The notes under the pieces: model-generated
Database searches by the model: none
What the model was told of the DNA's origin: nothing
Seen by the model: only the letters and a program-made list of their open reading frames with translations
Assembly (NCBI GenBank): GCA_039621445.1
Contig: CP154954.1
Coordinates: 26,300,954-26,364,953, forward strand
Direction of reading: 5' to 3'
Origin: Euglena gracilis
Lineage: Eukaryota
Length of the DNA stretch: 64,000 nt
In this document: piece by piece, positions 302-64,000 of the stretch
How the letters are laid out: every line of letters starts with the position of its first letter
Numbering within the stretch: the first letter of the stretch is position 1
Program-made: the position numbers and the translations under genes

Positions 302-673
302 ACCCCAACCGGAACGCCGTCCGCCACACCGTCCGCGACGCCAACCGGCACACCCTCCGCCACGCCGTCCGGCACCCCCACCACCACCCCATCCGCCACC
401 CCAACCGCCACTCCAACCGCCACCCCTTCCGGCACGCCCACCACCACCCCATCCGCCACGCCCACCGGCACGCCTTCCGCCACGCCGTCCGCCACGCCCA
501 CCGCCACACCGTCCGTAACGCCCTCCGGCACACCAACAACGACGCCCTCGGCCACTCCGACAGGCACGCCCTCCGCGACGCCGTCTGGCACCCCCACCAG
601 CACACCGTCGGCGACGCCCACCGGCACACCGTCTGCCACGCCGAGTGGGACCCCAACTGCCACCCCTTCAGCT
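302..673 (+). CDS. TPSA-repeat exon 1 (372 nt, phase 0/0)
   Basis: Acceptor gctctgcttCTGccccc|ACC; donor GCT|gccCAGgacggagc. Confidence 0.85.
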
Positions 674-2304
674 GCCCAGGACGGAGCCCTATTGCTGTGT
701 CGTATCCTCCCCCGCTCGGCGGATTGATATCCGCAAATTTCCCACAATTTCTGCAATTTTCCGCAATTTGCGCGATTTTCCGCAATTTCCCCGCAATTTC
801 CACAAATTTTCTGCAATTTCCCCGCATTTTCCCCCCTTTCTGCAGTTTTCTTTGCATGAACCTGAAATGCAAAGGTAAAATGAGTTCTGGCCACTTCTTG
901 AGCGTTTCATAAGGGCATCCAGGTGCTTTTTTTGCTTACCTCCCTCAAATAATACCCCCCCGGGTATTATTTTTTTTTTCGCCCGAAGTCCCGGCCCGAG
1001 GGGGGGGGTATTATTTGGGGGGTAATGGCACCCCAAAATTTTCCAAATCTTTGAAGCCCCGCAGGACCCAAAATAGTATCCAAAACCCCCTTTGGGGTCT
1101 TTTTTTTTCTTCTTCTTTTTCATGAAATTTGGCATTTTTGGCGGCCAGACGATCCATAAAAAATATTTTTTTTCGTAATTTGTTGTCAGAGATTGTGATT
1201 CTTGGGTCGTTGGCCCGAAATTGGGGGGGGGGGTATTAATTCGGTCCCCGAAATCGGACCCCGAGGGGGGGGGCTGGGGGGGTGCTATTGGGGGGAGTGT
1301 TTATTTTGTTGCATGCTTGCCAAAATTTGCCAAATTTTGCAAATTTTGAACAAATTTTGGCAAATTTTTGGCCTGTTTGTAGTGTTTTCCCCGAGTTCTG
1401 CTGGGAAATAATTTCGGACTGAGAAAATTTTAAATCCTGACCATATTCAACCTGATAACAAAGTTCTTGTCATTTTTTTTTGCCATTTTTGGATGCTTCA
1501 TCCAAGGAATTCCATATTTCCAGAATCAGCATGTTCCCAAAATTACAAAAATTCCTTTTCTTGGACCTTTTTGTTGGAAAGAATGTGAATAACGGCTCAA
1601 AATTTACATCTATGTTGCAAAATGGCCAAATTTGTGCAATTTTTTTGAAGTCCCTTCCAGAGGAAGTGTGCCAACCCCCAAACCTGCAACTCCCGCAGTT
1701 TTTCCACAATTTTCCCACAGTTCTTCCAAAGACCTTTCATATCAATTCCCTCCCTGCTCCCTGCCAATTCCTCCGTTGGGGAAATCACTCAACTTATTTC
1801 CCTTGGTTTTAAACCTGCTTTTTTCCCTTTGGGCAGATGGCAAGTTGAATAATCATTTTGGTTGTTTGGTGGGCCGACCAGTCAGGCTTTGGGAAACCCC
1901 CAAACATAAGCGGCACCCTTAAACTACCCTCCTCCCCCCTCTATGTCCAACAACCCCCCAATGTCGAACGCCCCCCCCCCCCCCCCGGTTGAAGGACACT
2001 TTCTTCGGAGGTTTGGCCTGGTGCTGAGCGCCGGGCCGAAAAATTTTGTACCCAAAATCGGCCAAAAATCGGCCAAATGCCAATTTTTGTACTTTTTTTT
2101 TGAGCAAAACAATATCAAATTGCCCAAATTTTTGGCGCAAAGCACAGGGCGTAAAGAAAAGATTGACCTTATTTGGGTCCCGGGAGCCCTCCAACCTTTT
2201 TTTTAGACCCTTTTAGACCCCCCAAATGCAACTCAACCCACACGGTGTGTTTCGTTTCTTCGCTGTTTATATTTAGTATTATATGGTATATATAGTATTG
2301 TGTG

Positions 2305-2392
<88 letters not shown>

Positions 2393-5300
2393 TCACACAC
2401 ACATATTCACAGGCCGTATGTTTGGGATGTGTATTCCCTGGGGACGATTGTATCATTTCTTACCCTCCCTGCAGTTCCTTTCAAGTCACACCACCTTAAG
2501 AGCTCTGACTTAGGCGGCGCGAATTGCCCAAATTTTTTGCGATTTTTTGCACGCTTGGGGTGCGCGGGTTTCCGTTTACGAAACTCACTGTTATGTGCTC
2601 GAAATTTTGAGAGGATGGCACCAGCACAAAAATTTGGGTCGTTTTGAGTCCATTTTAGGCATTTTGACAAAGTGGCGATTTTGAGAATTTATGGTCGTTT
2701 TAGGGGGGGTTTTGGAAAACACCCCCCTGGAACGCCCTGAAATTTTGAAAAACAGAAAACAGCCGGAGAACACCTGGCCACTGGAGCCCCGGTTGTTTGG
2801 CGATGTTGCTGGACCCCCCCCCCTCTGGAGGGGGGGTGACACAGTGTGGCAGGTGAAGAAGAGGCAACCGCTTAAGCAACCCGCGCATTTTTGAACCTCT
2901 CGTGAGTGCCGATGTCCAGTGACGGGGGAGGTGAACACACAGCACTGCCCAACAGATGCTACAATTTCTTGGAAGAGATGTTTTAAGCGGTAAATCGCGC
3001 AAAATGAGTTTTTGTGATGAAGAGATGCTGGCCTAACGGAGGGGACTGGACTGGGAATAACGTTAAAAACGAGGTTACACGGTTTACTGTGTACAGAAGT
3101 GATGATTCCTCAGGCGGAAACCCGCGCAGAAGGGTTTGAGAAAGAGAACAGTTCGTGTTTGTGGATGACACGTGGGAGCGGGAAGTGGGAACGCGCAGAA
3201 ACCTCCAGAAGTGGGTCATCACGTGAAGTTGTTAATGAACAAGTTTGGGGGAGAGGGAGGGGATTTTGGGTCGTTATTGAACGATGGCAGTGCGCGGTTA
3301 TCCGCGTACTTCGCTTTTAGTTTGCGCGGGTTTCCGCACAGATGAGGTTTGGGCGGAAACCCGCGTGGAGCTTGTTGCTGTCCTGATGGGTTGTGTTTTG
3401 TGATGTTTTGGTGTCCCAAAGTGTCGGTGTCAGTGGTGACGTGTGGCGACATCGTTTTTGACAGTTGGGCGGGACAGGTTGAAAGGGAGCTGTGGCTGCT
3501 GCGCCGTGACAGCAAGCAACCGAGCAGGCGGAAACCCGCCTGGCATTTGAGCAGGAGGTGGACACCCTCCTCTGCAATTCGGACGCAGTAATGTTCCCCC
3601 TGGCCAGTGGTGAAGGGGTGGCTGCAGGGACAGCAGTGGAACGCACGTGTCAGTTGCCAGGCCGGGTGAGCTGCGGTAGAGAAGATGTTTTGTTACCGTC
3701 CCGAAAAACGGCCAAAAAACTGAGGTTGATTTCTCAGGAGGAACAAAAGCACCTCCCAGGGCCCTCCTCCTGGAACCCAACGGTCTTGGTGTCCCAAAGT
3801 CAGGGTTTGGGGAAGGCTGACGAAGAAGTGATTCAAGATATGGACGGAGAAACTCCTGTTTCAGCAGTTGGTGGCAGCAGTCGAACAATTTCGGGGGGTT
3901 TTCGGAAGAAGTCCTCCAGATTCTGAGAAAATCAAGGCCTTTTCAATTGTTTTTTGAAACAGTGTTACAGCATTTTTCCTTTGAAAAGCCGCAGTTTTTG
4001 CTGAATTTCAGGCAAAATGCCCAAACCACCTCTTTTTTTCTGGCTCTTCTTCCTTTGGGGTCGGCAACATGCCTCCGGAGGAGGGAACGGTGGTCTCCAC
4101 CGTCAGAAGCCGTGTGGGAGGGGGATAAACCAGAAGGCGGTCGTTCTCAACCAACGCCGGGTCAATGTTTGACCCGGTGCATCTGGCTTCCATCCATGTA
4201 ACCACCCTCAGCACAAGTGTGTCCGGTCTTTCTGGAGACCACCCCTGCTCTGAGTGCCCAAGTTTAAGGGCTGGCCGTCTCTCCTCGGTTGGTCAACCCC
4301 TGCTGGCGCAATCTCCTCTCCCTGGTTTCCGTAAACCTCCACCCCTCAAACTCACCACAACACGCCAGACACCATTCAGTTACAAACTGCCTGGCGACCT
4401 GGCAACAAAGTCTGTCGTCCGTGTCCTCCGCAAAGATTCACGCCTGTGACTTGTGTCACAAGTAGGGTTGCAAAACTTTGCCAACAAACCAGCACAGTTT
4501 ATTTCTAGGGTGGTTTCCATCTTCCACCCCCATCCCATCGTCCACAAATGCTTTGCTTTTTCTGCTCACCCTTAACCCGGCCACACGGATTCCCGCTTAC
4601 ACCCAGTCGCCTTACACTCACCACGTATACACACATACCAGGCGGATTCCCTCCCACCAGTCATCAACTGTTTGTGTTATTGTACGCGGTAATCCGCCAT
4701 GCTTTGTTCTCACTTTTAGGCGGTAATCCGCGTTACAAGTTCAATCTACGCGGATATCCGCCTAACATTTAACTCCGTCGTCTGACACCTCTTCTTTCGT
4801 TTTACGCGGTTATCCGCACACACTTGCAATGTTCATTCGTCTCTCAAATACTGTTATTAACGTAAACCATGGACGCACAGCCCCATGTCACACCCATTCA
4901 AAGTTGGTGTTTTTCCAGCCATTTCAAACCGTTCTAGTACACTCCCAAATCACACAACTCACACACAATCGGAAATCGGCTAAGCGGAATACCGCGCAAA
5001 ACCACTTCTGTTAAATTTTGGCCCAAAGCCGCCACACACCCCTCTCAGCTCAAATCTTTTTGCCCTTTTAGGTGTTTTTAAAACAGCCAAAAAAAACGCC
5101 AAAAAACGCAAAAAATCGGTTGGGCAATTCGCGCCGCCTAAGTCTGAGCGCTGGGGGTGGCAGATGGCCAAAAGGACATTTGTGTGGGGCATTTGGAGAG
5201 CGGAAGATTCTGCCACTTTTTTTTTGTGTGCCTTGGAACCTTTGGGTAACAAGGGGGAACATTTCCATCCCATGAAACTCTGGGGACTCAGAAAAGAAAG

Positions 5301-8300
5301 AATTGGAAGTCATTTACACAATTTTCTTTACGGAATTGCACCAGTGCACCAGTCATCTCGGCGTTCATACATCCTCGTCATTCTTGTGAGTCGATTTTTC
5401 GCTTCTCGGAAATACATTGCATAATCGGGTGACAACATTTACGTTCCATTCTTTTTATAACTAATTGCACATCCTGCATCCATCCATCAAATAAAAGAGT
5501 ATTGTTTGCCCACTGCTAAAAAAGAGTTATGGCAACGCCTTCGTCGAACACCTGATTTACATGTCTGACCAACAACACAAAGGTCTGCATGAAAAGGACC
5601 CCAAACACACAATTTCTGTTGCCATAGTTTAACGCCTTTTTTTTTAGTGTTTCAAAATGCTTGTGTTCAACGTTTTCCCAGAGTGAGCCTGAAGGGAACC
5701 TGGCAGTTTCCCATCTGGGAAGTTGTCAGGTCCCTGGTACCAGCCAATCTGTCACAGCAGGAAGTTGTCAGGATTTCCGGTGCCATGCATCATTTTAGCT
5801 GGAGGACATCCCATCCCCCACCAGGATGGAGGGGGGGCTTTTTCCAGCGTCGAACCGCCCTCCCCCCATTGACGAGTTTTAGCTATTTTCCAGCTGCCAT
5901 TTAATTTTTATTTTTGGGGTGTAATCAATGGGATAAAAATGGGGAGGAGATGGGTCGGAAATGGGCGGGCCAGGATAATTTTCGGTCAAACAATCGACTT
6001 CTTGCATAATTGGCTGTTTTTTGGGGACATTTTTGCAGTTTCGATTTTTGCCACCCATGTCGTCGTCCCCGGGTCGGGGCTCGTTTCAGCCCTGTGGGGG
6101 GGGGGGGGGTCAGCTAGCAGCCTTTTCCCAACCAGCCCATATGTTCCAGCCTCTCAGCTGGACCCCCCTGGATGGTTTAGCGACGCCCTGTTCTGGTCTC
6201 GTACCGACCTCTCAGGTGACAGCTTCCGGGGGGGGGGGTAGGTGAAATTAGGTTTGCCTTTGTCCCCAGGAGGGGGGTTCTTGACCAGATTCCAAGTGGG
6301 TGTACTCGCGGGACAGGGCTGCCCCATGAGGTGCCTTCGGGCCTAGGACAGACCCACCCACAAGTTCCTTCCCAACTCAGGGGACTCGTCCGAACCACAC
6401 CTGCTGGGGTCATGGACTGGAGTTACCAGAGCGAGGTCACGGTGAAGAAGACCCCCCACCCAACTAAAGTGGAGTATGTGCCTGGCAGCCACGTGGTGGA
6501 CATGGTGGACAGCGTCGTAAACGAAGTCAGTCCCGCCAGGCTCCGGCCACCTCCACGCACACAGACAAAAAGGGCCAGAGGCGAAAAGCAGCGCCAGGCC
6601 AGAATAAGGGATAACAGGCGTCAAACCAATAGCCACATTGCAGACAAGGGGGGAGATATTCGTTTGGAGGACATTCTTATCTCAGCTTCCTTTCATGATC
6701 TTCTGGAACCCATTTCCATTCAGAGCTCTGCTTCTGCCCCCACCCCAACTGGCACGCCCTCCGCCACACCGTCCACGACGCCAACCGGCACACCCTCCGC
6801 CACGCCGTCCGGCACCCCCACCACCACCCCATCCGCCACCCCAACCGCCACTCCAACCGCCACCCCTTCCGGCACGCCCACCACCACCCCATCCGCCACG
6901 CCCACCGGCACGCCTTCCGCCACACCGTCCGCCACGCCCACCGCCACCCCGTCCGTGACGCCCTCCGGCACACCAACAACGACGCCCTCGGCCACTCCGA
7001 CAGGCACGCCCTCCGCGACGCCGTCTGGCACCCCCACCAGCACACCGTCGGCGACGCCCACCGGCACACCGTCCGCCACGCCAAGTGGGACCCCAACTGC
7101 CACCCCTTCAGCTGCCCAGGACGGAGCCCCATTGCTGTGTCGTATCCTCCCCCGCTCGGCGGATTGATATCCGCAAATTTCCCACAATTTCTGCAATTTT
7201 CCGCAATTTGCGCGATTTCCGCAATTTCCCCGCAATTTCCACAAATTTTCTGCAATTTCCCCGCATTTTCCCCCCTTTCTGCAGTTTTCTTCGACTGAAC
7301 CTGAAATGCAAAGGTAAAATGAGTTCCGGTCACTTCTCGAACGTTTCATAAGGGCATCCAGGTGCTTTTTTTGCTTACCTCCCTCAAATAATACCCCCCC
7401 CGGGTATTATTTTTTTTTTCGCTCGAAGTCCCGGCCCGAGGGGGGGGGTGTTATTTGGGGGGTAATGGCACCCCAAAATTTTCCAAATCTTTGAAGCCCC
7501 GCAGGACCCAAAATAGTACCCAAAACCCCCTTTGGGGTATTTTTTTTTCTTCACTTTTTCATGAAATTTGGCATTTTTGTCGGCGAGACGATTCAGAAAA
7601 ATATTTTTTTTTCTAATTTTGTTGTCAGGGTTTGTTATTTTTGGGCCCTTGGCCCGAAATTGGGGGGGGGGGGTATTAATTCGGTCCCCGAAATCGGACC
7701 CCGAGGGGGGGTTGGGGGGGTGCTATTGGGGGGAGTGTTTATTTTGTTGCATGCTTGCCAAAATTTGCCAAAATTTGCAAATTTTGAACAAATTTTGGCA
7801 AATTTTTGGCCTGTTTGTAGTGTTTTCCCCGAGTTCTGCTGGGAAATAATTTCGGACTGAGAAAATTTTTCATCCTGACCATAGTCTACCTGATAACAAA
7901 GTTTTTGTCATTTTTTTGCCATTTTTGGATGCTTCATCCAAGGAATTCCATATTTCCAGAATCAGCATGTTCCCAAAATTACAAAAACTCATTTTCTTGG
8001 ACCTTTTTGTTGGAAAGAATGTGAATAACGGCTCAAAATTTACATCTATGTTGCAAAATGGCCAAATTTGTGCAATTTTTTGAAGTCCCTTCCAGAGGAA
8101 GTGTGCCAACCCCCAAACCTGCAACTCCCGCAGTTTTTCCACAATTTTCCCACAGTTCTTCCGAAGACCTTTCATATCAATTCCCTCCCTGCTCCCTGCC
8201 AATTCCCTCTTTGGGGAAATCACTCAACTTACTTCCCTTGGTTTTAAGCCTGCCTTTTTCCCTTCGGGCAGATGGCAAGTTGAATAATCATTTTGGTTGT

Positions 8301-11300
8301 TTGGTGGGCCGACCAGTCAGGCTTTGGGAAACCCCCACACATAAGCGGCACCCTTAAACTACCCTCCTCCCCCCTCTATGTCCAACAACCCCCCAATGTC
8401 GAACGCCCCCCCCCCCCCGGTTGAATGACACTTTTTTCAGAGGTTTGGCCTGGCGCTGAGCGCCGGACCGAAAAATTTTGTACCCAAAATCGACCAAAAA
8501 TCGGCCAAATGCCAATTTTGGTACTTTTTTTTGAGCAAAACAATACCAAATTTCCCAAATTTTTGGCGCAAAGCACAGGGCGTAAAGAAAAGATTGACCT
8601 TATTTGGGTCCCGGGTGCCCTCCAACCTTTTTTTTTTAGACCCTTTTAGACCCCCCACATGCAACTCAACCCACGGCGTGTTTCGTTTCTTCGCTGTTTA
8701 TATTTAGTATTATATGTTATATATAGTATTATATGTTATATATATTCACACACATATTCACAGGCCGTATGTTTGGGATGTGTACTCCCTGGGGACGATT
8801 GTATAGAGCAAAATTATCAAATTGTCCAATATTTTCAGCGCAAAGCGCGGAAGGAAAATTTGACTTTGGGGGTCCTGGGTGCCCTCCAACATTTTTTTTT
8901 TTTTAGACCCCTGGTCCAACAACCGACCCCCTGGTTGGTTGTCACCCTTCTGGCCAGAACCCTATTGCAACGGGGAGTTCTGAACCCCATGGGGTCCCCT
9001 TGGTTTAATGTGGGGGTCTATTGTCTAACGTCGGCATATTTTGAGGAATTCTGTATTTTTAGGCAAAGGGTCATGGTTGTGGTTGCCTTTAAGAGCGATG
9101 TAGGTTGGGGTTCAGCCAAAGTTGGGAGGTTAGGGGGTTCTGTCGAAACTGGGCCAAAATTTGGATTTAGTTAAGCCTAATACTAGCCTACATCTGGGCC
9201 CACCTGGCCTAAATTCCAGCCCAAGCCCAGTCCAAACCCTAAACATGATCCTATCCCTCACAATTAACCAAAACCCTAAGGAGCAGGGATGCTGTATCAC
9301 ACATTTGTTTGGGGAAGTAAAAGGAAATTGAATTCGGTCCCTGTTGTGAAAAACGCCAGGTGGTCTAATCCCCCCAATCGTTCACTTACTGGAGACCCCC
9401 CCCCAAGGGCAGTAGTTTAAGGCTGCCACAAATGCAACTCAACCCACAGCGTGTTTCGCTTCTTTGCTGTTTATGCATATGTTCGCACATACACACATAC
9501 ACATACATTCACAGGCCATATGTTTGGGACGTGTATTCCTGGTGACGATTGTATCATTTCTCACCCTCCCTGGAGTTCTTTTCAAGTCACACCATCTTAA
9601 AACCTCCGAGCGCTGGGGGTGGCAGATGGCCAAAAGGACATTTGTGTAGGGACTTTGGAGAGCGGAAAATTCTGCCATTTTTTGTTGCCTTGGTACCTTG
9701 GGGTAACAGTGAGAGCTTTTTTTCACATCTGAAGCGTTTTGGACCCATTTCCAATTCAGAGCTCTGCTTCTGCCCCCACCCCAACTGGCACGCCCTCCGC
9801 CACACCGTCCGCGACGCCAACTGGCACACCCTCCGCCACGCCGTCCGGCACCCCCACCACCACCCCATCCGCCACCCCAACCACCACTCCAACCGCCACC
9901 CCTTCCGGCACGCCCACCACCACCCCATCCGCCACGCCCACCGGCACGCCTTCCGCCACACCGTCCGCCACGCCCACCGCCACCCCGTCCGCGACGCCCT
10001 CCGGCACACCAACAACGACGCCCTCGGCCACTCCGACAGGCACGCCCTCCGCGACGCCGTCTGGCACCCCCACCAGCACACCGTCGGCGACGCCCACCGG
10101 CACACCGTCCGCCACGCCGAGTGGGACCCCAACTGCCACGCCATCTGTTTCGGGCGTTGCAAACTGCCAACAGCTTTTTTTGGGTTGTGTTTGGGGCAGC
10201 AGACACAAGGCCTGGGATAGAACCGCCAGAAGAATTTTTTCCAATTCTTGCTTTCTTTCTTTTTAAATCAAAAGCTTTTGAAAATAAAAGGGACCGATCC
10301 TCCTTGAGATTGCTGGAATTATTGACTGGTTTGCGAGAGGACACAACCTGGGGGAAGCCGTCAACTTCTTGTATCATGAGCCTGGTTTTGGCACCTTGGG
10401 GTGAGGTGAAATTTCTTGGAATGAAATGCAGAAACACAGGCGGAAACTTGCGATTTGTGAAAATTTGTGAAAAGAATATAAGTAACGTGGTTTTTGGGGC
10501 AATGGGCTTTCCCTGATTTTCCCCTGCTGCAAGTGCTGGAAAAAATCTTCCCCCAGTTGCCTTTTGTGGTTTTGTTTTAGGATTCTGCCTGGTCCAACCC
10601 TCCCCTTTGATGGGTCCAGGCACTGATTTTTTTTGGGATTAGCTTAAATTGTGAGGACATCCCAAGTCTTTTTTCCTGACTTGACCCACTCCTCCCAACC
10701 CTAACCCTAGCCTGACTCTGGCGTTTTGAACCTTGGGCATTGAAGTATCCTCCGGGATGACCCCCCACGCCTATCACTCTCCCTCAAAGATTCCTGTCCA
10801 CAGTGATCGCCACCACCACAATTACCATCACGACGTCATTGTCATTTAGTACTGTGCACACAGTCTGCAGAGACGGAAGCGCAGAGGGAGATACGTCCAC
10901 CCACCTCGGAAGTGTCCAGTCCCCAGGTCGCAGGGTCAACCCCCCGCGGAGGAGTTTGCCTCCAAAACCCTTTCACAGAAAGGCGTTCGCACGTCCGTTT
11001 TTTGGCATCTGGCCCCGGGGGAGTTGACCTCCCACCGTAGGCAGGTCCCCCAGTTGTCTCCAGCGGCAGGAAACGTACGAGAGTCCAGTTTCCCGGTGAT
11101 ATTAGTTCCTCGGAGGGAAAGGCAGTGAGCTGGTACGGCAGGTAAGGTCGCTGGCGGCGGTTTGCGCCGCCCAAGTCTGCCACCCCCACCGGCACGCCGT
11201 CGGCCACGCCGTCGGCAACCCCGACCGCCACGCCCTCAGCGACGCCCTCCGGCACTCCCACCACCACTCCCTCCGCAACCCCAACAGGCACGCCCTCGGC

Positions 11301-14300: not shown

Positions 14301-15672
14301 GACACTACCAAAAAATGAAATAAGAGGCAATGGGCTCCAAGTTGAACACTGTTTTTCGATCCCGAAGCTCTGCCTCTGCCCCCACCCCCACCGGCACACC
14401 CTCCACCACACCCTCGGCAACCCCGACAACCACCCCATCTGCCACACCGTCCGGCACGCCGACCATCACGCCGTCGGCAACCCCGACCGCCACGCCCTCG
14501 GCCACACCGTCCGCCACGCCGACCGTCACGCCGTCGGCGACGCCCACCTCCACGCCATCCGCCACGCCATCCGCCACCCCCACGGCCACCCCTTCAGCTG
14601 CCCAGGACGGAGCCACCCTCTCCTGGCTGCCTGGTTTCTCTTTTTTTTTGCAAAACTGGAGCACGGAAACATCTCTTTAATGTTTTCCAGACCCTTTGGG
14701 GGTGCTTCTACAGATGGCGTGGTGAATAGCTGGGGCCAGAGCGATCAGGGAACACACGATTCTGTCAGTGCGATCCATGTGTGGGATTGAGCCAGAGAAT
14801 CTCTTATTCGTCATCGTTTGTGGTGGAGTTCGATGCTGATATTTCTGTATTTCTGCAATTTTCGAGTGGAAAAGAACCACATGCTCACTACCCAGAAGAA
14901 GAGGAAGGAGCAGTCGACCAGTACCCTTATCCTGATAAATTCCCAGAAAGAACTGGTTTTGGTATCCTGTCAAATCAGGAGACAGCTTTCCAGAGGGGAG
15001 GGTTGGAGAGGGGGAAAACGAAAGGAATTTTTTTTCTACAGAACCAGAAAAGTCACAAATTGGGAACTCCCGAAGCTTTGCCTCTGCCTCCACCCCTACC
15101 GGCACACCCTCCGCCACGCCCTCGGCCACTCCGACCGCCACCCCATCTGCCACACCGTCCGGCACGCCGACCATCACGCCGTCGGCAACCCCGACCGCCA
15201 CGCCCTCGGCCACACCGTCCACCACGCCCACCAGCACGCCGTCGGCGACCCCAACTGCCACGCCATCCGCCACGCCATCTGCCACGCCCACGGCCACCCC
15301 TTCAGCTGCCCAGAACAGATCCATCCTCTCCTGGTTCCTGGCACAACGACAATCTTTCGGCAGCTGGTCGCCCCCGACACTAATCATGCTTGAATGCCGT
15401 TAAGCAATGCCGCAAATGGTCCAGGGTGTCTGTACGAGATATGCAACGCCGATTCAAAGCACAGTGGTGGGGCGAACTGAATCAACCCACCAGTGGTATT
15501 GCCTACTGTATTGGCAGTGTTCAGGAGGGCTATGTACAGAAGGGAGCGCAACGTACAGATGGGTAAACCCCATGGGCAGGTTAGCAGTGTTCAGGATGGG
15601 GAGGGTTTGGAAAATATACTGAACGTTTTTGCAACACCGCAAAACACTCCCTAATATGAGTGCACAGGCACG

Positions 15673-15761
<89 letters not shown>

Positions 15762-15806
15762 ACCCACCCACCCACCCACCCACACCCAACCACACACACA
15801 CACACA

Positions 15807-15858
<52 letters not shown>

Positions 15859-15902
15859 TGCACGCACGCACACACACACACACACACACACGTACACACG
15901 TA

Positions 15903-15950
<48 letters not shown>

Positions 15951-27900: not shown

Positions 27901-30900
27901 AAAAAGACCCTGAACTTTTGAGAAAGCAATTTTTTGTCCCCAATCAAGGTGATAACACCAAGCGTTGAAGTGGGATAAAAGCCATGTTTTCAGAAAGAAA
28001 ACCCAGACCAATGGAAGAATTTCGTATTAATATGTTTGTTTTAGTTAGTTTGGTGGCCCTCTGGGCTTTGCTGGTTTTAATGTGACTTTTTGCCATCATT
28101 GCATACATACATCTCTTTAAGGACCCCCGGGGGGGGGGTTGCTGGGCTAGGGCTAGAATATTGGGTTGCTAGAAACCTGGCATAGCTGCCCCCCCTTTCT
28201 TCCCGCGGGGGGGGGGGGGGTGGACCCCCCCCAAGGACCCGAAACTCCATGGACTGGAAATCGGAAAAATGCCCAAAAAATACCTGCAAGACACAGTTTG
28301 AATATAATGACGCTGAAACCCCCCAAAAAGGCCCCAAACGCCCCCCCAAACCACTGCATGCTGTATATGGCTTCCACAATGCTGCATGTGCCACATTAGA
28401 TACCTCGTGCTGTGCATTGGGTTTGTGCTAACTTAACAAGATTTAAACAAGCCCTCTTGTGCATACATTTTTAAATGTATTTTTCAATTTTTATCACTGG
28501 AACATGCATTCAGCTTACCTCTAACGTGCATGGCTAGCAGGGCTAGCAGCACCCCCCCCGGGGGGGGGGTGCTGCTGCGGCTGGGCTGGGCCCAAATCGG
28601 GGCTGGCTGCAGCCGCCCCCCCCGGGGGGGGGGGGTTCGCAAAACCTTAGAGAGATGTATGATTGCATAGTGTGCATTTGCAACTTCACATATGTGTGTG
28701 CAAACATGTTCGGGTCCATGTCCATCTCTTTTTTCCAACAGTATTGGCAGCCTCATACTGCTGGGACCCCCAAGGACCAACTCCCAATGTTATGGGGGTT
28801 AATAGTATGAAGCTGCCACAATGCTACATGTGCACACATTAGATACCTCGTTGCTGCATTGGGTTTGTGCTAATGAAGATTTAACAAAGCCCTCTTGTGC
28901 ACCCATTTTTATGTATTTTCAAATTCTTATCACTGGAACAGGCATTCAGTTCCTCTAACGTGCATTATTGAATTTTACAATCTGGAGGGTGGCTCCACCC
29001 CCCCCCCCCCCCCCGCCTGTACTGAGTGGTACCCCCCCCAGAGGGGTTCCTCTATTTATGGCACAATGCATGGAAAAAAATTTTTGACCCAGATCGAACC
29101 CTGGGGGAGCTTCAAAAATAAAATACTCCCCTTCTGATGCAGTCATTGTGCATTGGTGTCCGTCAGGGAGTGGCGGGGACACATTCTGCGTAAGGATGAC
29201 TCCAGGGAGGCGAAAGGTCCCCTGCAGGGCACTTTTGAAGCCAGGCACGCTGACTGTTCTCCCGGCGGCCAAACCTTTGTTCAAGCTTCTGCCTGTCTGT
29301 TGGGTCCAGCAGAACATTTCGAGAGTATTTCCTCGGGATGCTCTCCCATGCCCCCACCCCAACCCTGACGCCGTCCACCACACCGTCCACCACGCCCACG
29401 GCCACCCCCTCGGCAACACCCACCGCCACACCCTCAGCGACGCCGTCCGCCACCCCCACCGCCACGCCCTCGGCCACACCGTCCGCCACGCCTACCGCCA
29501 CCCCGTCCGCCACCCCCACGGCCACACCCTCAGCCACGCCGTCCGCCACGCCCAGCGCCACGCCGTCTGCGACGCCCAGTCCCACCCCGACCGCCACGCC
29601 CTCCGCGACTCCTACGGCCACGCCGTCCACTTTTCAGGGCCCCAACCTCCCCCGGGTGCCATTCTCGTTGTCAGATCTCTCCCTTTCACAAAGCTTCAGT
29701 CACTCTGCATTTTGTCCGTCCTTCCCTGCTAACCTCCAGTTGAAGCATAGTATTGTTTCTTCGGAGGTCGGTGCTCTGCCCCCACCCCAACCAACACGCC
29801 CTCTGCAACCCCATCCAGTACCCCTACAAGCACCCCGTCCGCCACCCCAACCGCTACCCCAACCGCCAGTCCCTCCGCCACACCCACAGACACGCCGACC
29901 AGCACCCCATCGGGCACCCCAACCACCACCCCAACCGCCACCCCAACCCTGACACCAACGGCCACCCCGTCCGCCACCCCAACAAGTACCCCGTCCGCGA
30001 CCCCCTCCGGCACGCCAACTGCCACGCCGTCCGCCACACCGTCCGGAACCCTGTCGGCCACCCCATCCGCCACGCCCACCGTCACCCCCTCGACCACCCC
30101 CTCCGGCACCCCCACCACCACTCTGTCGGCCACTCCCACTGGCACGCCGTCTGCCACACTGTCCAGTACTCTATCCGCCACCCCAACGGCCACCCTGACT
30201 GACACCCCCTCCGCCACCCCACACAGGGGGCCGCCGCCAGCACGGTAGCCTCCGGCTCCCGTTCATAGTGTACAGCAGTCTGTAGCCGACAAAGCGCGGG
30301 GGATAAGGAAGTACCTCCCCCCTTTTCCAACAACCGGCCTTCTCCAACGACCCCCCCGGTCAATAGCGGTCTTTTTCCAGGTGATCTTTTTTTCACCGGT
30401 TGTTTTCTTTTTTCTTTTTTTCCACCACATTTTGTTTCGACCTCGGTCTTGTCTAACGACCACCCCCCGGTCAGTAGCGATATTTAGTGGTCGTTGGACA
30501 ACCACCAATAGCGTTTTTTTTTTGGCCAGCGAGAAGTTACCTCTCGACCCATGAACCCCCAAACTGACCAAATATAAGTAAGCAAGTAAGTAAGTAAGTA
30601 AATAAGTAAGTAAATAAGTAAGTAAGTAAATAAATAAATAACACCCTCAAATATAACCCCCCACCAAATGTGAAAAACCCCCTTGTCACGTTGGAAATTT
30701 ATCATCTACACACCAATGATCTTGTGACTGGAGTCTGATGGCAACACAAACAAGGGGGGTTATATTGTAAAGGGCATTGCATTTGCCCTGACACAAGAAC
30801 AGGGACTAAAAAAGAAATATGTGTACACCATTCGGCCCCCTCATGTTGCCATTTCAGTCAATTTCAGCCTGGTACAAAAAAAGCACCCAAAATGGCAGTT

Positions 30901-32224
30901 CGAAGACGGCCATGTCACTGCTGAAAATGAAATCTCCTGTGCTTTTTTGCCTTGATGCAAAAGATTGGACCAAAACAAATTTTTTTGCTCATTCAACCTT
31001 GGGACCAATCATCTTCAATACCCAGTCCATTGTTTGTGTGGGCGAAGTTGGTGGGGGAATTCTTGGGGAAAAAAAACCCTTTTCTTCACAAAATTTGCTG
31101 GTTCTCAAATGTCTGGCAAAAGGCAGCGTCTTTTTGTTTGTTTTCCTGGTCGACCAAAAATTGTGAACCATTTTTTTGCCTGAAATCCGACACCCAAAAG
31201 GGTCGTCCTATCCCACCCCTCCCCTTCCTTCTTGTAAGGTGTCACCTGGTTTCTGGTAGCGGATCTCTAATTACTTTTATGGGCAGATGTAAGACCCCAT
31301 CGTGGCCGCTGCAACGACCTTCGCAATCTTTTTTTTATAACCTCCCCACCCACATCGCTGCCATGTCGGTCCCCCCATTTTGAGAGAGGCTCCATTGGTT
31401 GGTTGGTTGGTCAACCAAACGGACAGGCCGCTTTCCCCTGCCTCCGACCTCCACATCGACCGTTTCCCCGACCCCCACCGACACGGCATCCACCACCGAC
31501 ACCGCCACCCCAACCTCGACCCCGACCCCCAGCGCTTCTGCCACCGCAACGCCCACCTCCACCCCCTCCGAGACGGACACCGCCACTCCAACCGCCACCG
31601 AGTCCCCCACCCCCACTCCAAGGGGCGCGGCGCTTGGGACAGGAGTCCCCCCAGCAAGCACCTTTCTGGGTGGTGGGCGGGGGGGCATTGCGTGGCGTGG
31701 CGCTCCCGCTGACTCGCACCACCACATTGACCGCAACACCGTCGGCCACCGGCACCCCTACGCCCACTGCCACTCCCACCGAGACACTGACACCCACCGG
31801 CACCGACACGCAGACGCCGACTGACACCTCGAGCCGGACCGGCACCGGCACCCGAACCCGCACCATCACTTCCACGCCGACCCCCACCGGCACACCAACT
31901 GCCACCCAAACCCCAACAGTGACCCCGAGCCGTAGCAAGACCATCTCGGGCACCCCGACGCCCACCACCAGCGCCACCCCGACCAAGACCCGCACGCGGA
32001 GCCAGACCCCCACCATCACCGTGACCCGGTCCCGGACCATGTCCCCCACCCCGTCCTACACCGTCACCAGCACGCCGACGGCGACGCCCACCAGGACCAG
32101 CACCATCACCCCGACCTCGACCACGACGAGTACTGCAACAACGACGCGGTCTTCGACAGCCACTCGCACCAGAACTTGGACAAGTGTGTGTGTAAGTGTG
32201 GTTGGGTGGGTGGGTTGGTTTGTC

Positions 32225-32266
<42 letters not shown>

Positions 32267-35200
32267 CGCGCGCGAGTGTGGTGCACGCTTTTTTTTGCGC
32301 GCCTATGGATAACAAGTGCACGTTGTGAATTCAGATGCACCGTGTGTTAAAATCAATATGGTGTACATATCTGTATGTCTGTCTTTATATTTTGTATGTT
32401 TGGACAACAGAAGTTCACATAACCCCCCCCAAACAACACCCCCCCCCCCCGTGTGTTATTTGGGCACCCGAACTGGGGCCCCAGGGGGGGGGGTGTTATT
32501 TGGGGGGGGTGCTATTTTCACATGTAAAACCAAAGGAAAACAGGGGGGGTGTTATTTGGGCGAATCGGCCCCCGAGGGGGGTGGTGTGTTATTTGGGGGG
32601 GGGGGGTTGTTTGGTAGGGGGTTTACTCAATGTCATTTTTTTGAGTGAGGCATTTGCTCAGGATCTCATTGGACAGATCGCCTCCAGTTCTGGATTTCAG
32701 TGAGAGATTACCCAGTGTAGATTTCTTTATCCCTCCCCAGAAGTTGAAGAAGCCCGCACCAGCTCATTTGGTGATTATTTTGAAGTTCATATTTTTATTT
32801 TTCTTTGAATGTGAGAAATAATGGCGATGCCCCTACAACGCTTTTGCGTCAAAAGTTGCAGCATATGATGACGATGGCTGGCTGCCCAGCAAGGCGCAGG
32901 TGAATCCTCAAGAGGTAACCCTTGGTCATAGCTTCCTTTCTCCATGGCAAGATGGCAAGGGCTTCCTTTTCACATGACGAGTTTTTTTTTTCTGCAGAGG
33001 TTGTATTTTATGTTTGACTGAGTCAACATTTATATTTGTGCCCATGGGTTGTGGTTTTTACATGAAGACAGGGAGTGAGCTGGTGGAGGAGAGTAGGGAA
33101 AGAAAGCAGACATAAACCTCACTTTCAGCTTTCTGGGCAAAGGAACATTGCCCTTTGAAATAGTTCTTGTGGAAGGCAGGCGCAAAACACTGAAAACGTT
33201 GGCACACATACACAAAATAACCGTCATTTGACCCCTTGGAAAAGGCACCGGTTGCCGAGGCTTTTAAGACCTTCAACGCCTTTCCTTTTTGCGCATTTGT
33301 GCTGCTGTTGGTCCCAGGGCGGCGGGTGATGGGAGTGTATTGTTTTTTGGGGGCATGTGTCTGTTTAGTTCAAAGACCCCCCGGGGGGGGTGGCCTGGGC
33401 CGGATCCCCATGGGCCCCGGAGGCCTGGGTGTGGGTTTTGGTGCAAAGCACCAAAGGTTTTTTTTTGGGAAATGCCCTTAGGCAGCCCGATCTTTTGAAG
33501 GGTCCCCCCAGGAGAGTCCGACGGTTGGGGGTCCAAAAAAAAACCTGGGGAGGGGCGGTGGTTTCTCGCTGGTGGCCGATTTCCTCCCGTTCTGTGCCTC
33601 CATCCCCGCTGCCGGGGCCACTCGTTTCTCTCCAGCCACGCAGACGTTCATCCCGACGTACACGCCGACCCTGTCCCAGTCCCGTACCCCGACTCGCACC
33701 CGTAGCGCGACCATCACCCGCTCCGTGACGACCACCCGCAGCGCCACGCTCACCGCCACCTCGTCCTCCACCCGCTCCACCTCCATCACCTCCACCGCCA
33801 CTCCCAGTACAACGTCCAGGCTGGCTCGTCTGTGTCCTCGGGATGTGTGCCCAGGGGAGTTGCATTTGCTTTTTTCTTGCACCTTGGTGAGAAGATTTTG
33901 AAGGGAATCGGGTGCGCATTTGTCTGGATCTCTGCCAGCCAAGTTTGGGTATCTCACCACACATATGAAGTGAACAACAAACATTTCCCAAAAAAAACAA
34001 AGTCCAAAGTACAACTGGAGCCATGAATTGCTGGATATTCTGTCGGAAGTCGCTGGATGCATCGGGGCGCCAGAAAATTTTTATCTTACCTCCCCCCCCC
34101 CCCGGGAAACTGTCATGCCCGAGAACCTGTCAGGGTCCCGCCCGGGAAACTGTCAGGGTCCCCGGTACCGGCCAACCTGTCAGTATAGGAAGTTGTCAGG
34201 GTCCCCAGTACTGGCCAACCTGTCAGGTGACAGTTTCCCGGAGGGGGGGGGGTAGGTATTTAAAAATGAACCTGGCCATAAGGTTTTTGTGAGTGGCATA
34301 GCTGCTGCCAATCCGGCATGTTACGGCATGGATAGATGGAGGTGGCGGCGGGGCCGGCATGAGCACCGAGTACCACAGCAAGGCGGCTGGGCACGGACAC
34401 CCACAAAACATGCATTTGCAGTGGGCAGGGGGGAGTGTCCCATGCTGTGCCGGGTGTGTGGAGAGAAACCCCGCAGGGTCTTAATAAGTGGCCTGGTCCG
34501 AACGTTGTCCCACACACATTGTCGCTGACATTTTGATAAATGACTAGTTTTGTGCCTGACCAAAAATTTTTGCACCCAAAGTCCCAAAGTTGTCCAAATG
34601 TTCATTTTGGGGCACAACTCTGTCAAAAATGCCGAAAAATTTCTGGGATGAAGTGCCTGAATGAATAATTTGACCTTGGGGGAGTATCGTCGCAAAGCCG
34701 GAGGGTACCCATCCCTCCGGGTCCCAATCATGTGGTGGAGGAGGTTAGGTGGTAGGGGCTGTGGACCCCCTGGATGTGTGAGGGGGGTCTGGACTGGGCC
34801 AGAAGCAAATTTAGTGCCGGCCATAAACAGACAAGGCTTACCAAGAAGCCTTAGTGCAACTGAGGGGGTCGGACCCCCCCCCCACCCTGCGCGCTAGAAA
34901 ATGCAAAAAAACGCCTTTTTTTCATCACCTTTGAGCATGTTACTCATTTTTTTTTGATGTTTTGGTGTTTTTCGTCTAGAAAAAATGTTCAAACTTTTCA
35001 AAAAATGAGCATTTTTGGATTCATTCTCAAAGAAAAACCAGGGACTTTTGAACAATTTTGGTCTGTTTTCCAGCTCTTTGCCCGTCTATAAAGCCAAGAA
35101 TTTTCCTGCCCCCATCAATTTCGAGGTAGGAGGTGGGGGTCTGCCCTCCCCCCCCCTTCGTGTCGGGAGGGGGTCCGACCCTCCCCCAAGGCTTCCCATC

Positions 35201-36544
35201 TATCCCTGTCGGGGGGGGGGGTCCAGCCAGCCAGCAGCCTTTTTCCAGTGTTTGCCCAAGAAAGCGGCCAATTACGCAAAAAAAACAACAACAACCGTTT
35301 TTAACTCCAAAATCAACGCCCTGGGAAGCACAAGTTGGGAGTTTGTTGCTCCGGACTGCCTTCCCCCATGGTCAGGGGGGCACCCCCCCACCCCAGACAT
35401 CCTCCTCATATAGAATGCCAGCGACAGGACGGTTTCCAAAAACACGCGCTACAGGGCTCCCCAAAGGTCTTTGTGGTTTGTGAACCCGAAGCTTGAGGAC
35501 GGCTTTGTGCTCACTGGCGACGATGTGTGGGGGGGAACTGTCCTCCCCCCCGGAGCACATGGGGGGCCTCATTCTGAACCCTGCCTGCCGCCAATGCGTG
35601 TTTTTTTTTGTACGTGTTCATGTCCAGCCGTCTTGCTGTGGTGCTTGGTGCTCGTGACAGCACAATTGAAGCCCCATCCTTCAGGTGGTGTGATCCATTT
35701 CATAGCCTCAAACCTTTTGGTCATTTCCGGCTTCGCAGCTCACCGGAAACTTCCGGCTGGGTTTGATCTTTAAGGCGTCTTGCTATGCCCAACAGAGTAT
35801 TCATGGCCCCAACCGTGTTTCCTCCGTGTCCCAAAGCAATGGGTGTGCCGTCTGGTGGAAAACCTTGAACTCTCTGAAGCATTCCTCCGAACCTGTGCCA
35901 ATAAAATTATGATATTGCATGAAGGAAAACAGCCCAAGACATGTTGGGAGGATCTCCCTCCCGGTCCCAAAATTGCGTCAAAGCCTGAAAGGCCTTGCCA
36001 CACCGTGACAGATTTCCAAGTTTTGCCTCAATATAATGCGATATTTTCAGAGAACTTGTTTTCTGCGTTGGTCTTCCTTGACAACAGAAGACAGAGAAGA
36101 GGCTACTTTGTGGGGCACATCCACCCCCAGTGGTTGAAAATCTTGAAATCATCCAAAAGGTCATGCAATCAAGGGTCATTTCAAGACATTGGAAAGACAT
36201 TGGAAACTAAATGCAAAGGTTTATCATTTGGGGATGCTGACACAAGGTGTGCTGGGGGGTGTGCCACAGAGTGTGCGGCACACTCTGTGGCTGACCGGGA
36301 GGCAGATACAAAAAAAAAAAAAAACAAAAAAAAAAAAAAAAAAAAAAAAACTAATAAAAAAATAAAAAAAAAAACACAAAAAAAAAAAAAAAAAAAAAAA
36401 CATATAAAAATAAAAAATTTATAAAACCAAATTAAAAAAAATCAACAAAATCAAAAAAAAAAAAAAAAAAAAAAAAACAAAAAAAAAAACAAAAAAAAAA
36501 ATAAAAAAAAACAAAAAAAATAAAAAAAACAAATAATAAAAAAA

Positions 36545-36618
<74 letters not shown>

Positions 36619-39600
36619 AAAAAAAAAAAAAAAAAACTTAAAAAAAAAAAAAAAAAAAACAACTAATGCAAAGGTTTATCATTTGGGGGATGCTGACCAC
36701 AAGGTGTGTTCCGGATTCGTCCGATCCTTCTCGGCTTTTGCTTGAAGATTAAAGCAGCTTTTTTTTCAATCATTTGAAAAGGCACAAAGGCTAACCCACT
36801 AATTAATGACGCCAAATTCTATGCTTCGTGTTGCGCTTTGTTGCGGAGCTTCGCGTTTCACGTTGCACATTTCAACCGCGTTTTCCGTCAACGGGCCGGC
36901 CACTTCAGGCCATGCCCTTGTGAGGGTTGTCGTCGGCGCCCGCCTGCCCCCGACCACCGCCACCCTGACCGACACCGCCACCATGACTCTGACCGTCGTA
37001 CCCACCACGACCCCCACCCCGACCGCGACCGCCACCGGGACCCACACCCGCAGCGCCACGCCGACCAGCACGGCCACCGGCCTCCTCACCGACACCAACA
37101 CCCCGACTCGCAGCCGGAGCGAGAGCCGCACGTGGACCATCACCGCCAGCGGCACTGCCACGGCCTCGGCGTCCGCCACCGCCACCGCCTCCGCCACTGT
37201 GACCACGCTGTCCTTTTGAGGCCACCACTACACAGAATCGTCGCGTGTTTGATCACAGCGCCGCCAAACTTTTACACAGCGTCCAACCAGCGTGAAGACA
37301 GGTCCATTTGTTGATTCAATTTCTTGTGGCTGGAGAACAGTGGAGCGAGCATTTTGCTCACCAATGGAAAATTTAATCTACAAGATTTCATTTCAATTCA
37401 TGCAACAATGCTTCTGCCTTAGAGAGAGAGAGAGACCAAATCCATTTGAAGGGATTGAGGTTTTGCATACTCCTGCTCCGTTTGAGAAGATTGAAAGGAA
37501 TTTGCAGCGAAAAGAAGTTAAGGTTGACAAGCTCATGACTGTCCCGCACACAAGCTGGAATTCCTCAGAAATCCCCTGGCTGGGGTGCCCCCGCGGGGCT
37601 GTCTGTTTTGTTGTGACCGGTCCGGTTGATCCGAGTTGGTGGAGAAGCTGGCGTGGCGGGCGACCCATACCCCCTCCGCCACCATCACCAGCACCGAGAC
37701 CCCCAGCATCATCCGGCTCAGCGGCATTTCCCCTGGGTTTGTTTGCTCTTCCCTTTGATTTCCCCGCACCTTGTTGCTGGTGTTTTCCGTGCCGTGCCTG
37801 CAGAGGGACTGGGGCCCCAGACTGTCTGTCTGAGGCCTCCCCCACTGTAAACCCCCCCCAAATAACGCACCCCTCGGTGTGTTATTTGGGCACCCGAGCT
37901 GGGGCCCCAGGGGGGGGTGTGTTATTTGGGGGGAGATGTTATTTTTTTCATGGAAAACCAAAGGAAAACAGGGGGGGGGGTGTTATTTGGGCGCTCGAAA
38001 TCGGCCCCCGAGGGGGGGGGGGTGTTATTTGGGAGGGGGGTTTACCTCCCCAGCGGTCGGTGCATAGTTGTTTCCGCAGAAGGGGGCAAAAAATGCCCCT
38101 TGTGCCCCTTGTGCCCTTGGAACAGTGCACTCAGAAAGGAGAACAGTAAACCCCCCAAATAACACCCCCCCAAATAACACCCCCCCCCAAATAACACACC
38201 CCCCCTCGGGGGCCGATTTCGAGCGCCCAAATAACACACCCCTCCTGTTTTCCTTTGGTTTTCCATGTAAAAATAACCCCCCCAAATAACACACCCCCCC
38301 CCCTGGGGCCCCAGTTCGGATGCCCAAATAACACACCGGGGGGGGGGGGGTTATTTGGGGGGGTTTAAAAATGCTCCAGGGGCAGTCTTCTTTAAAACTG
38401 GGACCCCCCCCCCGGCGGGGGTGGGGGCTGGGGGTGGGGGAACATTGGGTCAGAGGGGCTGAGTGGTGGGTGACTCGATGGGCCAGGGGGGTCCTGCCCA
38501 AAGGGATGGTTTGAGCTGAAAGTTATGATGCCCCCCTGGATGGTTCGGGGGTTTCCCTTTGAGGACCGGCTGCTCAGAGCCCCGGATTTTCGATGAAATG
38601 GCCAAAGGCCATGAAAAGGGTTTTTGGACGATGTCTTTCGATGGGGTTTTCTGCGACCCCGTACCCCGGTCCCTCCCATGGCCCACCCCAACCTGGATGG
38701 AGGGGACCCCAGGGGTCTTAAAATTGAAAGGAAAGCTGGCCTCGGGGCTCCGGGGGGGGGGGGGGCGATAAGTTGAACGGGAGAAATGGTGTGGAAAATA
38801 TGGGTGAAATCTTGTCTGGTATTTTTCTGTAGTTTTAAGGATCCGTCCAGGATCTTTCCCTGCAAATTTAAGGAAAGCCTGGTTTCCTCCAGTGAACGCT
38901 CAAAAGATTCCTTTTCCTTTTCCTTTTTCTTTTCCTTTTCTTTTCCTTCGGCGTTTCGAGCCGATTCTTTGGAAGGTGTTTACCCCCCTCCAAATTACCT
39001 GTTCAGAAGGTATTTTGGTCATACAAAATGAAAGAATTTCTCTTCTTTTTTCTTTCTTTCAATTTGGAATTTAGGATTTGACCGATTTTTGAATTTCTAT
39101 TTTGAGAAAACCATGCGATTTTGATGTTAATTCTGAATGCTTTTTCTGAAAAATGGGTTCGCAAGGTTCTTTCGGCAATCACTGTTCCTGGCCATTTTAA
39201 GCCCGCATCCAAGGTTTCCCCCGGATTTCAAGGCTCCTTCCCATGTTTTCCCCGCCAGATTTTTTGCTGTCAGCCAGAGTTGACCTGTCAGCCTATTCCC
39301 CCTCCTCTGCAGCTGTGTCTTGCACTGGACGTGCCCACCGTACGGGCAAATCCGACCGGAGGGCCCACTTGTGGGGGAGGGGCAGCGGGTCGGGTCCCCT
39401 GCTGCGCCGCCGCCCGCAGGAACGGGGCTGTGCTGCCCCGCCAGGGGGCCATCTGGGTGTTCACGTTCGACCGCGCCGTCCAGCTCCGCGGCGGGACCGC
39501 CAACCCCAACGCCCTCGCCCGCCTGTTCATGGGCGGCGTCACGTTCGCGACGTTCCCCGCGACGGACAGCAGTTTCAGCGTCAGCGGCCGAAGCCCAGGC

Positions 39601-53967: not shown

Positions 53968-54001
<34 letters not shown>

Positions 54002-54096
54002 GCACGCACGCACACGCACGCACGCACGCACGCTTGCACGCACACACACACACACACACACACACGCACGCACGCACGCACGCACACACGCACACA

Positions 54097-54152
<56 letters not shown>

Positions 54153-61830: not shown

Positions 61831-61859
61831 GGGGGTGGCATTTTTTCCCCCCTGCAATT

Positions 61860-62200: not shown

Positions 62201-62249
62201 CATTGAAAAAGTTGGGGGACCAGGGAATAATCCCCCCTGTCCATTTCCC

Positions 62250-63986: not shown

Positions 63987-64000
63987 AGGGCTTAAGGCCC

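Follow-up and report, generated by a model that had tools for sequence, protein, structure and literature searches.

The subject of this analysis is a stretch of 64,000 nucleotides (nt) from Euglena gracilis (assembly GCA_039621445.1, contig CP154954.1, positions 26,300,954 to 26,364,953 of the forward strand; hereafter the window), in which positions 302-37219 of the plus strand probably hold the 3' part of one split gene that is cut mostly by nonconventional introns, that reads as a single frame of about 1986 codons and that has a predicted glycoprotein backbone as its product. According to this model, the region would be the 3' portion (~37 kb) of a single protein-coding gene that begins before the window and is divided into at least 20 exons, and its modules would have arisen by repeated tandem duplication of units composed of an exon plus an intron. 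Sixteen of the 19 modelled introns would be nonconventional, with paired ends that form a helix and thereby bring the junctions together, and two would be of the GT-AG type; the nonconventional splicing machinery would presumably excise the 16, and splicing would leave one open frame of the length given above.

For decades euglenids have been known to possess nonconventional introns, a gene that is cut mostly by them is normal for Euglena, and current knowledge is not overturned by the locus. Low-complexity genes with nonconventional introns are invisible to gene finders built on GT-AG and are hard to assemble from short-read transcriptomes, and the locus described here can be recovered from DNA alone with codon-position statistics and the published splicing code.

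Repeat blocks and coding evidence

Between positions 302 and 30221 of the window, which has a G+C content of about 52%, the plus strand and only this strand carries 16 blocks of a tetrapeptide repeat, (T/S)P(T/S)X, which are 52-146 codons long and use all three frames. They are followed by four Thr-rich and less periodic open reading frame (ORF) pieces at 31.4-31.6, 31.7-32.2, 33.6-33.8, and 36.95-37.2 kb. Tandem Repeats Finder reports, per block, periods of 12, 24, 36, and 60 nt with only 64-84% matches, so that the repeat is far better kept in the protein than in the DNA.

The blocks are regarded as coding because the differences between paralogues are almost confined to third codon positions. 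Six blocks of 372 nt can be aligned without gaps, and their differences concentrate at the third codon position when read in the TPSA frame (e.g., 8 at the first, 10 at the second, and 65 at the third position). The ratio of non-synonymous to synonymous substitution rates (dN/dS) is 0.06-0.16 in 14 of the 15 pairs of 372-nt paralogous exons, and it is 0.39 in the remaining pair, which has only 9 differences. For seven pairs the ratio was determined in all six frames: it amounts to 0.07-0.16 in the sense frame and to 0.09-0.21 in the antisense frame that shares the wobble position, being higher in the latter in every pair, and to 2.0-13.2 in the other four frames. Serine is encoded 274 times, by 245 TCN and 29 AGY codons, a usage that fits selection acting on the amino acid.

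In ten of the 16 cases the stretch from the preceding stop codon to the block contains no in-frame ATG (one of the ten being open to the window edge), and all 16 blocks run into a stop codon 7-150 codons past the block end. For these two reasons the blocks are read as exons and not as standalone genes, which agrees with the initial annotation of this DNA, made from the letters alone, in which the scattered TPSAT ORFs had been denied the status of separate genes. The first 301 bases of the window are the 3' end of an intron that begins before the window; they end with CTGCCCCC|ACC. Bases 5-2315 are a copy of bases 6436-8745 with 95% identity, and since positions 1-301 match the final ~300 nt of the intron ahead of exon 2, the gene begins upstream and is cut by the 5' edge of the window. 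Between diverged paralogues, the conserved flank is limited to about 18 bases ahead of a block and about 13 bases behind it, and the remainder is unalignable.

Intron ends, splicing code and helix

The model was built by joining 20 exons by their coordinates, and near each gap the pairs of intron ends that leave the frame open were enumerated, both those compliant with the nonconventional code and those of GT/GC-AG type. It comprises 5961 nt, i.e., 1986 codons, with zero internal stop codons, and ends at the TGA at 37217-37219; the exons are 156-481 nt long and the 19 introns 91-6068 nt. The initial annotation had foreseen ~21 exons, a frame of ~6.0 kb and ~2000 amino acids, all close to these values. 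It had placed the element at 302-37736, of which the start coincides exactly with the start of the first block and the end was not reproduced. A small Thr-rich ORF does continue to 37755 and is joinable only via a weak GT donor.

The code against which the gaps were examined consists of CAG three bases into the intron, CTG plus five (or six) bases at the intron end, a purine opening the next exon, and paired intron ends. Its published form, 5'-N3CDG-/-CH'GN5-6|R, was defined by knock-in mutagenesis in a report that also counts 71.8% of the E. agilis introns as nonconventional (Nomura et al. 2025, PMC12501133), and the consensus given for nonconventional introns of E. gracilis is CCAGG / CCTG (Gao et al. 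2024, PMC11170887). At 14 of the 19 gaps, N3-CAG...CTG-N5|R fits exactly at the repeat edge, in frame and free of stop codons, leading to joins such as TPSA|TPTG; this set includes two joins between non-paralogous exons, namely 30221/31446 and 33814/36952 (..TATPST|TTTATLT..). For two further gaps (10147-11175 and 32192-33643) GT-AG is the best reading, two are one base off in a trinucleotide (20630-24590 with AAG...CTG and 27458-29355 with CAG...ATG), and one, the short gap near 31620-31710, is ambiguous. Counted per intron, CAG occupies positions +4 to +6 in 15 of 19 and is lacking at 20630, where AAG stands instead, in both GT-AG introns and in the ambiguous one; CTG-N5 forms the 3' end likewise in 15 of 19, with ATG standing before 29356. 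Sixteen of the 19 introns terminate in CC and not in AG, and at all 16 junctions of the nonconventional type the downstream exon opens with a purine (A in 14, G in 2). At the raw block edges, CAG is found at +4 to +6 past 13 of the 16 block ends and CTG at -8 to -6 ahead of 13 of the 16 block starts, and CCAGG stands at +3 to +7 in 11 of 17 introns. As the code is satisfied by chance in only ~9e-4 of the position pairs with a spacing of 60-7000 nt (413697 compliant pairs), 14 fits in 19 gaps at edges defined by composition are far beyond chance. Two statements of the initial annotation can thus be put in numbers: removal of NNNCAG...CTGNNNNN introns, said to join the blocks as TPSA|TPT, does so in frame and without stop codons at the 14 exact gaps, and the introns, said to be mostly non-GT-AG and of euglenid geometry, are of the nonconventional type in 16 of 19 cases and GT-AG in only two.

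The two ends of each intron also pair with each other. The duplex energy between the first and the last 20-22 bases is on average -15.75 kcal/mol for cognate ends vs -12.06 kcal/mol for non-cognate ends, while random 22-mer pairs from the window have a mean of -7.7 (standard deviation 4.3), and when the 3' ends were permuted 20000 times the observed total was never reached. For the 11 introns with ends diverged from the main family the means are -17.45 (cognate) and -12.03, again with 0 of 20000 permutations reaching the observed value; the ends of the diverged introns thus fit their own partners, which amounts to compensatory change and at the same time ties every block to its successor. Of 90 positions, 80 are paired in the canonical register (+4 with -6 and further inward), compared to 25-47 after a shift of the register by 1-3 bases, and random pairs reach 1.83 of 5. 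A fold test joining 10 bases, U7 and 10 bases, as described in PMC11170887, returned a non-zero energy for 17 of 17 introns and a zero energy for 35% of random pairs. Partner-specific ends in diverged duplicated units constitute independent evolutionary support for the helix requirement.

With euglenid nonconventional introns the present ones share the spacers of 3 and 5 bases, the CAG/CTG trinucleotides, the purine, the pairing register, the euglenid host, and the coexistence with GT-AG introns in one gene. Nothing differs in kind; the difference is that two of them have a substitution in a trinucleotide that is essential in the reporter. Both of these near-miss introns, 20630-24590 and 27458-29355, retain nine pairs in the canonical register. 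The 5' end at 20630 has no better partner among the 19 3' ends, and six other 5' ends pair better with the 3' end of the intron 20630-24590 than its own 5' end does. These two junctions offer natural test cases that break the trinucleotide rule: if AAG...CTG and CAG...ATG are spliced in vivo, an extended in-register helix would compensate for a broken trinucleotide and the published code would be widened. Both GT-AG introns (10147-11175 and 32192-33643) have strongly complementary ends as well and resemble the "intermediate" introns of euglenids, a type with pairing ends that is mentioned in older euglenid literature (PMC4770533, PMC3935182).

In the order of the plus strand, exon 1 (302-673; 124 codons of TPSA repeats) is separated from its recent duplicate, exon 2 (6742-7113; 124 codons), by a nonconventional intron of 6068 nt (674-6741) with the ends GCCCAG...CTGCCCCC|A, which leads to the join TPSA|TPTG in frame and shows five of five register pairs. 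Exon 3 (9778-10146; 123 codons) is followed by the GT...AG intron 10147-11175 with the join TPS|SATPTG; its ends are paired, the cognate duplex of -23.2 being the best in both its row and its column. The next exons, all of them repeat blocks, are exon 4 (11176-11397; 74 codons), exon 5 (12851-13006; 52 codons), exon 6 (13458-13829; 124 codons), exon 7 (14384-14599; 72 codons), exon 8 (15092-15307; 72 codons), exon 9 (16719-17090; 124 codons), and exon 10 (18621-19052; 144 codons), behind which an intron with the ends GCGCAG...CTGTCTCC|A shows 9 contiguous register pairs. The TPSA blocks of exon 11 (20373-20629) and exon 12 (24591-24861) enclose the intron 20630-24590, AAAAAG...CTGGCCCC|A, which has one substitution in the 5' trinucleotide, an in-frame join, and 9 contiguous register pairs starting from +5:-7. 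Exon 13 (25673-26044; 124 codons) is connected by a nonconventional junction (26045 / 27302) to exon 14 (27302-27457; 52 codons), and the intron 27458-29355 behind it, ACCCAG...ATGCCCCC|A, has one substitution in the 3' trinucleotide and 9 of 12 register pairs. Exon 15 (29356-29631; 92 codons) precedes the shortest code-compliant intron (29632-29783; 152 nt), which has the ends TTTCAG...CTGCCCCC|A and a duplex of -23.5, and exon 16 (29784-30220) ends at the nonconventional junction 30221/31446 (CAG..CTG N5, -21.3).

Beyond the blocks, exon 17 (31446-31619) is Thr-rich and less periodic with an uncertain 3' boundary, and exon 18 (31711-32191) is rich in TxT/TRT with an uncertain 5' boundary: a relaxed search of the gap at ~31620-31710 gave 42 in-frame solutions, and 31620/31711 was picked only as the most seamless. 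The intron 32192-33643, GTAAGT...CAG, is of the GT-AG type and has an end duplex of -21.5 kcal/mol, which is the best in its row and its column, too. Exon 19 (33644-33813) is a further Thr-rich piece. The last intron (33814-36951; 3138 nt, GTCCAG...CTGCCCCC|G) is nonconventional with a duplex of -17.9 and five of five register pairs, it contains an A-rich tract of 350 bp (36310-36659), and it leads to the last exon (36952-37219), which ends with ...ATVTTLSF and the TGA.

The probable single gene and its alternatives

Several observations weigh against the reading of the locus as one intact gene. Three of the 19 junctions are doubtful, two due to the substituted trinucleotide and one as it is ambiguous, and any single substitution within the CAG/CTG trinucleotides abolished splicing of the reporter as described in PMC12501133. 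The 14 exact fits are not independent events because many of the exons and junctions are paralogous copies. Ab initio scans for code-compliant pairs are unspecific on both strands, whether combined with strong duplexes or with a permissive helix; code plus a helix of at least 9 permissive pairs gives ~14400 candidates on the plus strand and ~21400 on the minus strand, so that the argument rests on block edges predefined by amino-acid composition. The window does not include the 5' end of the gene and hence neither its start codon nor a signal peptide, if there is one. Finally, TPSA exon 6 searched against longer proteins, and exon 18 searched against longer proteins and against all cluster representatives, returned only composition-driven matches and no Euglena transcript. 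The matches to the exon queries are generic low-complexity ones with at most ~81% identity over short parts and are mostly bacterial, in a database that includes E. gracilis transcripts. Such repeats assemble badly from short reads, and a missing transcript-derived protein is therefore weak evidence against expression. One eukaryotic protein derived from a TRINITY-named transcript (P0049; 1093 residues) has a signal-peptide-like start, a part of ~500 TRT/TPT-rich residues that closely resembles exons 18-20, and a C-terminal half free of repeats. It was considered as the spliced product and rejected, as its tblastn matches in the window were all of low complexity and left out the C-terminal half.

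Since single substitutions kill splicing of the reporter, the two deviant junctions could be real breaks, and the locus would then no longer be one gene but an array of two to three tandem genes or a pseudogene in decay, broken at 20630 and 27458. We judge this alternative unlikely. In its favour are the AAG and ATG that replace CAG and CTG at substitution-sensitive positions (PMC12501133), the lack of a transcript-derived protein among the database matches, and the read-through past exon 11, which is open over 141 codons and contains a hydrophobic segment. Against it stand the 1986 modelled codons without a stop or frameshift and dN/dS values that are low even in the youngest duplicates (0.06 at a dS of 0.068). 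Both odd introns keep their helix of nine canonical-register pairs, with the 5' end at 20630 finding no better partner than its own among the 19 3' ends, and most blocks (10 of 16) are without an in-frame ATG with which a separate gene could begin. Moreover, the strict signature occurs in only 61.2% of the annotated nonconventional introns of E. agilis and is lacking in the other 38.8%, as stated in PMC12501133.

That the exons are joined by conventional GT-AG or GC-AG introns situated slightly inside or outside the blocks appears highly improbable. In-frame GC..AG or GT..AG pairs do exist near many gaps, such as GC at 674 with AG at 6724, and two gaps are indeed best read as GT-AG. However, only three recent copies have the AG before AGCTCTGC, the other paralogues having GA or AA instead, whereas CTGNNNNN, eight bases downstream of that AG site, is kept in the paralogues. 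The candidate GC donors lie inside the repeat and have no donor consensus, not a single in-frame GT/GC-AG pair was found for the gap 17091-18620 within the ranges searched, and the kept flanks are the complementary intron ends. Dinoflagellate-style GA donors (CAG|GA...AG|) were considered separately and rejected, as AG is missing before most blocks and the sole AG gives a 16-nt out-of-frame lead.

Non-coding minisatellites of 12 nt dispersed over repetitive DNA, which the strict 12-nt periodicity, the ORFs open on both strands over the blocks and the repeat-rich genome might suggest, are hardly conceivable as an explanation, as copies differ at every third base with the amino acids preserved, Ser is kept across TCN/AGY switches, all 16 blocks have one orientation and the flanks obey a strand-specific splicing code; the third-position differences and the Ser codon usage exclude them.

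Predicted product and other features of the window

The modelled product of the single split gene consists of 37.1% Thr, 22.5% Pro, 16.4% Ser, and 15.8% Ala, and Pro, Ala, Ser, and Thr together make up 91.7% of its residues. It contains 437 Thr-Pro dipeptides, i.e., one about every fourth residue, 8 Ser-Pro, and neither Ala-Pro nor Pro-Pro dipeptides. There is no N-X-S/T sequon, only one Cys and no globular domain, and the C-terminal tail (...ATVTTLSF) is not clearly hydrophobic; the chain is expected to be extended and disordered. A Pfam search with the 150 longest ORFs of the window returned only RVT_1 and no VWD, Cys-knot (CK), or SEA domain, which may reside in the part of the gene upstream of the window. 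PF04886 (PT repeat) scored 12.9 bits, vs a curated cut-off of 26.2, in one of the five exons scanned and was not found in the other four. The exons share with this family the XPTX tetrapeptide periodicity, and many of their database matches carry PF04886; the difference is that the scores of the exons are below the curated cut-off. A match to Trypan_PARP (11.9 bits vs a cut-off of 100) is meaningless.

In composition the product resembles both the Pro/Thr/Ser (PTS) domains of mucins and the classical arabinogalactan-proteins (AGPs), and by this analogy the putative backbone may be called mucin-like or AGP-like. As in the PTS domains of animal mucins, there is a very long low-complexity tandem repeat of Thr, Pro, and Ser (76% in sum) without sequons and without a fold; unlike animal mucins, Ala is as common as Ser, and no Cys-rich VWD/CK domains were found in the window. 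Animal PTS regions usually lie within one large exon, as opposed to ~19 cuts here. Classical AGPs, for which Pro, Ala, Ser, and Thr have to make up at least half of the residues, and hydroxyproline-rich glycoproteins (HRGPs) have in common with the product the high content of these four amino acids and the non-contiguous Pro in X-Pro dipeptides. In contrast to the classical AGPs, which are typically about ten times shorter than the modelled protein, the dipeptides are here almost only Thr-Pro. The kinetoplastid surface mucins and the Leishmania proteophosphoglycans are Euglenozoan, too, and have Thr/Ser-rich repeat backbones with O-linked or phosphodiester-linked glycans, yet beyond composition there is no sequence relationship to the product; kinetoplastid genes are not known to contain introns of the nonconventional kind. 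Within the broad class of repeat proteins rich in Pro, Thr, and Ser, the protein is a new member without prior annotation, and the intron type is one already known.

As the most likely role we tentatively propose an extended glycoprotein backbone that may be secreted or located on the cell surface, which would make the product a candidate backbone for the poorly known surface and mucilage glycoconjugates of Euglena. The heavily O-glycosylated stalk, marked as an inference in the initial annotation, is likewise no more than putative. Within the backbone role, alkali-stable or phosphodiester linkages are at least as likely as mucin-type O-glycans. Speaking against the proposed function, beta-elimination of E. 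gracilis proteins is reported to have given no O-glycan signature (PMC5745450), and a table in a review repeats the absence of this signal in E. gracilis (PMC7773692). The former report describes, in E. gracilis extracts prepared with cyclohexanediaminetetraacetic acid (CDTA), epitopes for anti-AGP (JIM13) and anti-extensin (LM1 and LM3) antibodies and mentions a GlcNAc-1-phosphate transferase activity of Euglena membranes (PMC5745450). A more specific and rather doubtful proposal is that the gene might encode the core of a Euglena surface or mucilage glycoconjugate, a giant backbone of Pro, Ala, Ser, and Thr carrying alkali-stable (hydroxyproline-linked) or phosphodiester-linked glycans, and that its ~16 paralogous nonconventional introns might serve as a natural mutagenesis series. 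If true, such a core would explain the anti-AGP and anti-extensin epitopes alongside the lack of release by beta-elimination. No description of such a Euglena protein was found in the literature searched (mucin, mucilage glycoprotein, O-glycan), work on mucus in subscription journals being outside the scope.

Within the introns of the modelled gene, a repeat of ~430 bp with 79.5% identity occurs at 11662-12094 and 20930-21360, in two different introns, and its copies, when read in the frame of the respective upstream exon, yield similar peptide strings. Further intronic simple tracts next to the A-rich one are (AT)43 at 2308-2392, an 11/21-nt tandem repeat at 22166-22281, and a (CACA)n microsatellite at 15675-15959 (71 copies). 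A second (CACA)n tract is situated at 53922-54114, outside the gene, and is spanned by the ORF 53857-54297; a weak Pfam match of this ORF to the loop region of the ZIP transporter was far below the cut-off and was judged spurious. A dispersed repeat of ~200 bp with 85-88% identity is found at 32420-32625, 37848-38044, and 38160-38367, the latter two copies being inverted, ~130 bp apart and directly downstream of the modelled stop codon.

A conserved cellular gene was sought by Pfam among the 150 longest ORFs and among 77 plus-strand ORFs at 50-61 kb, and only RVT_1 was found; an Rfam scan of the window gave 0 matches at the gathering score. The RVT_1 domain (2.3e-21) is encoded by the ORF 62346-63998 of a retroelement on the minus strand (60453-63999). 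The best match of this ORF, with 89% identity over 61% of the query, is eukprot:EG_transcript_6737, whose identifier prefix appears alongside Euglena gracilis in ten papers, followed by matches with 50-64% identity. This reverse transcriptase match links the window, indirectly, to a euglenid host as nonconventional introns require, and in combination with the intron type it assigns the window to E. gracilis or a close relative. A second long ORF (61654-63999; 782 codons) overlaps the RVT_1 ORF in another frame and runs off the window, and downstream of the RVT_1 ORF lies an ORF of 332 codons (60453-61448) with no family match.

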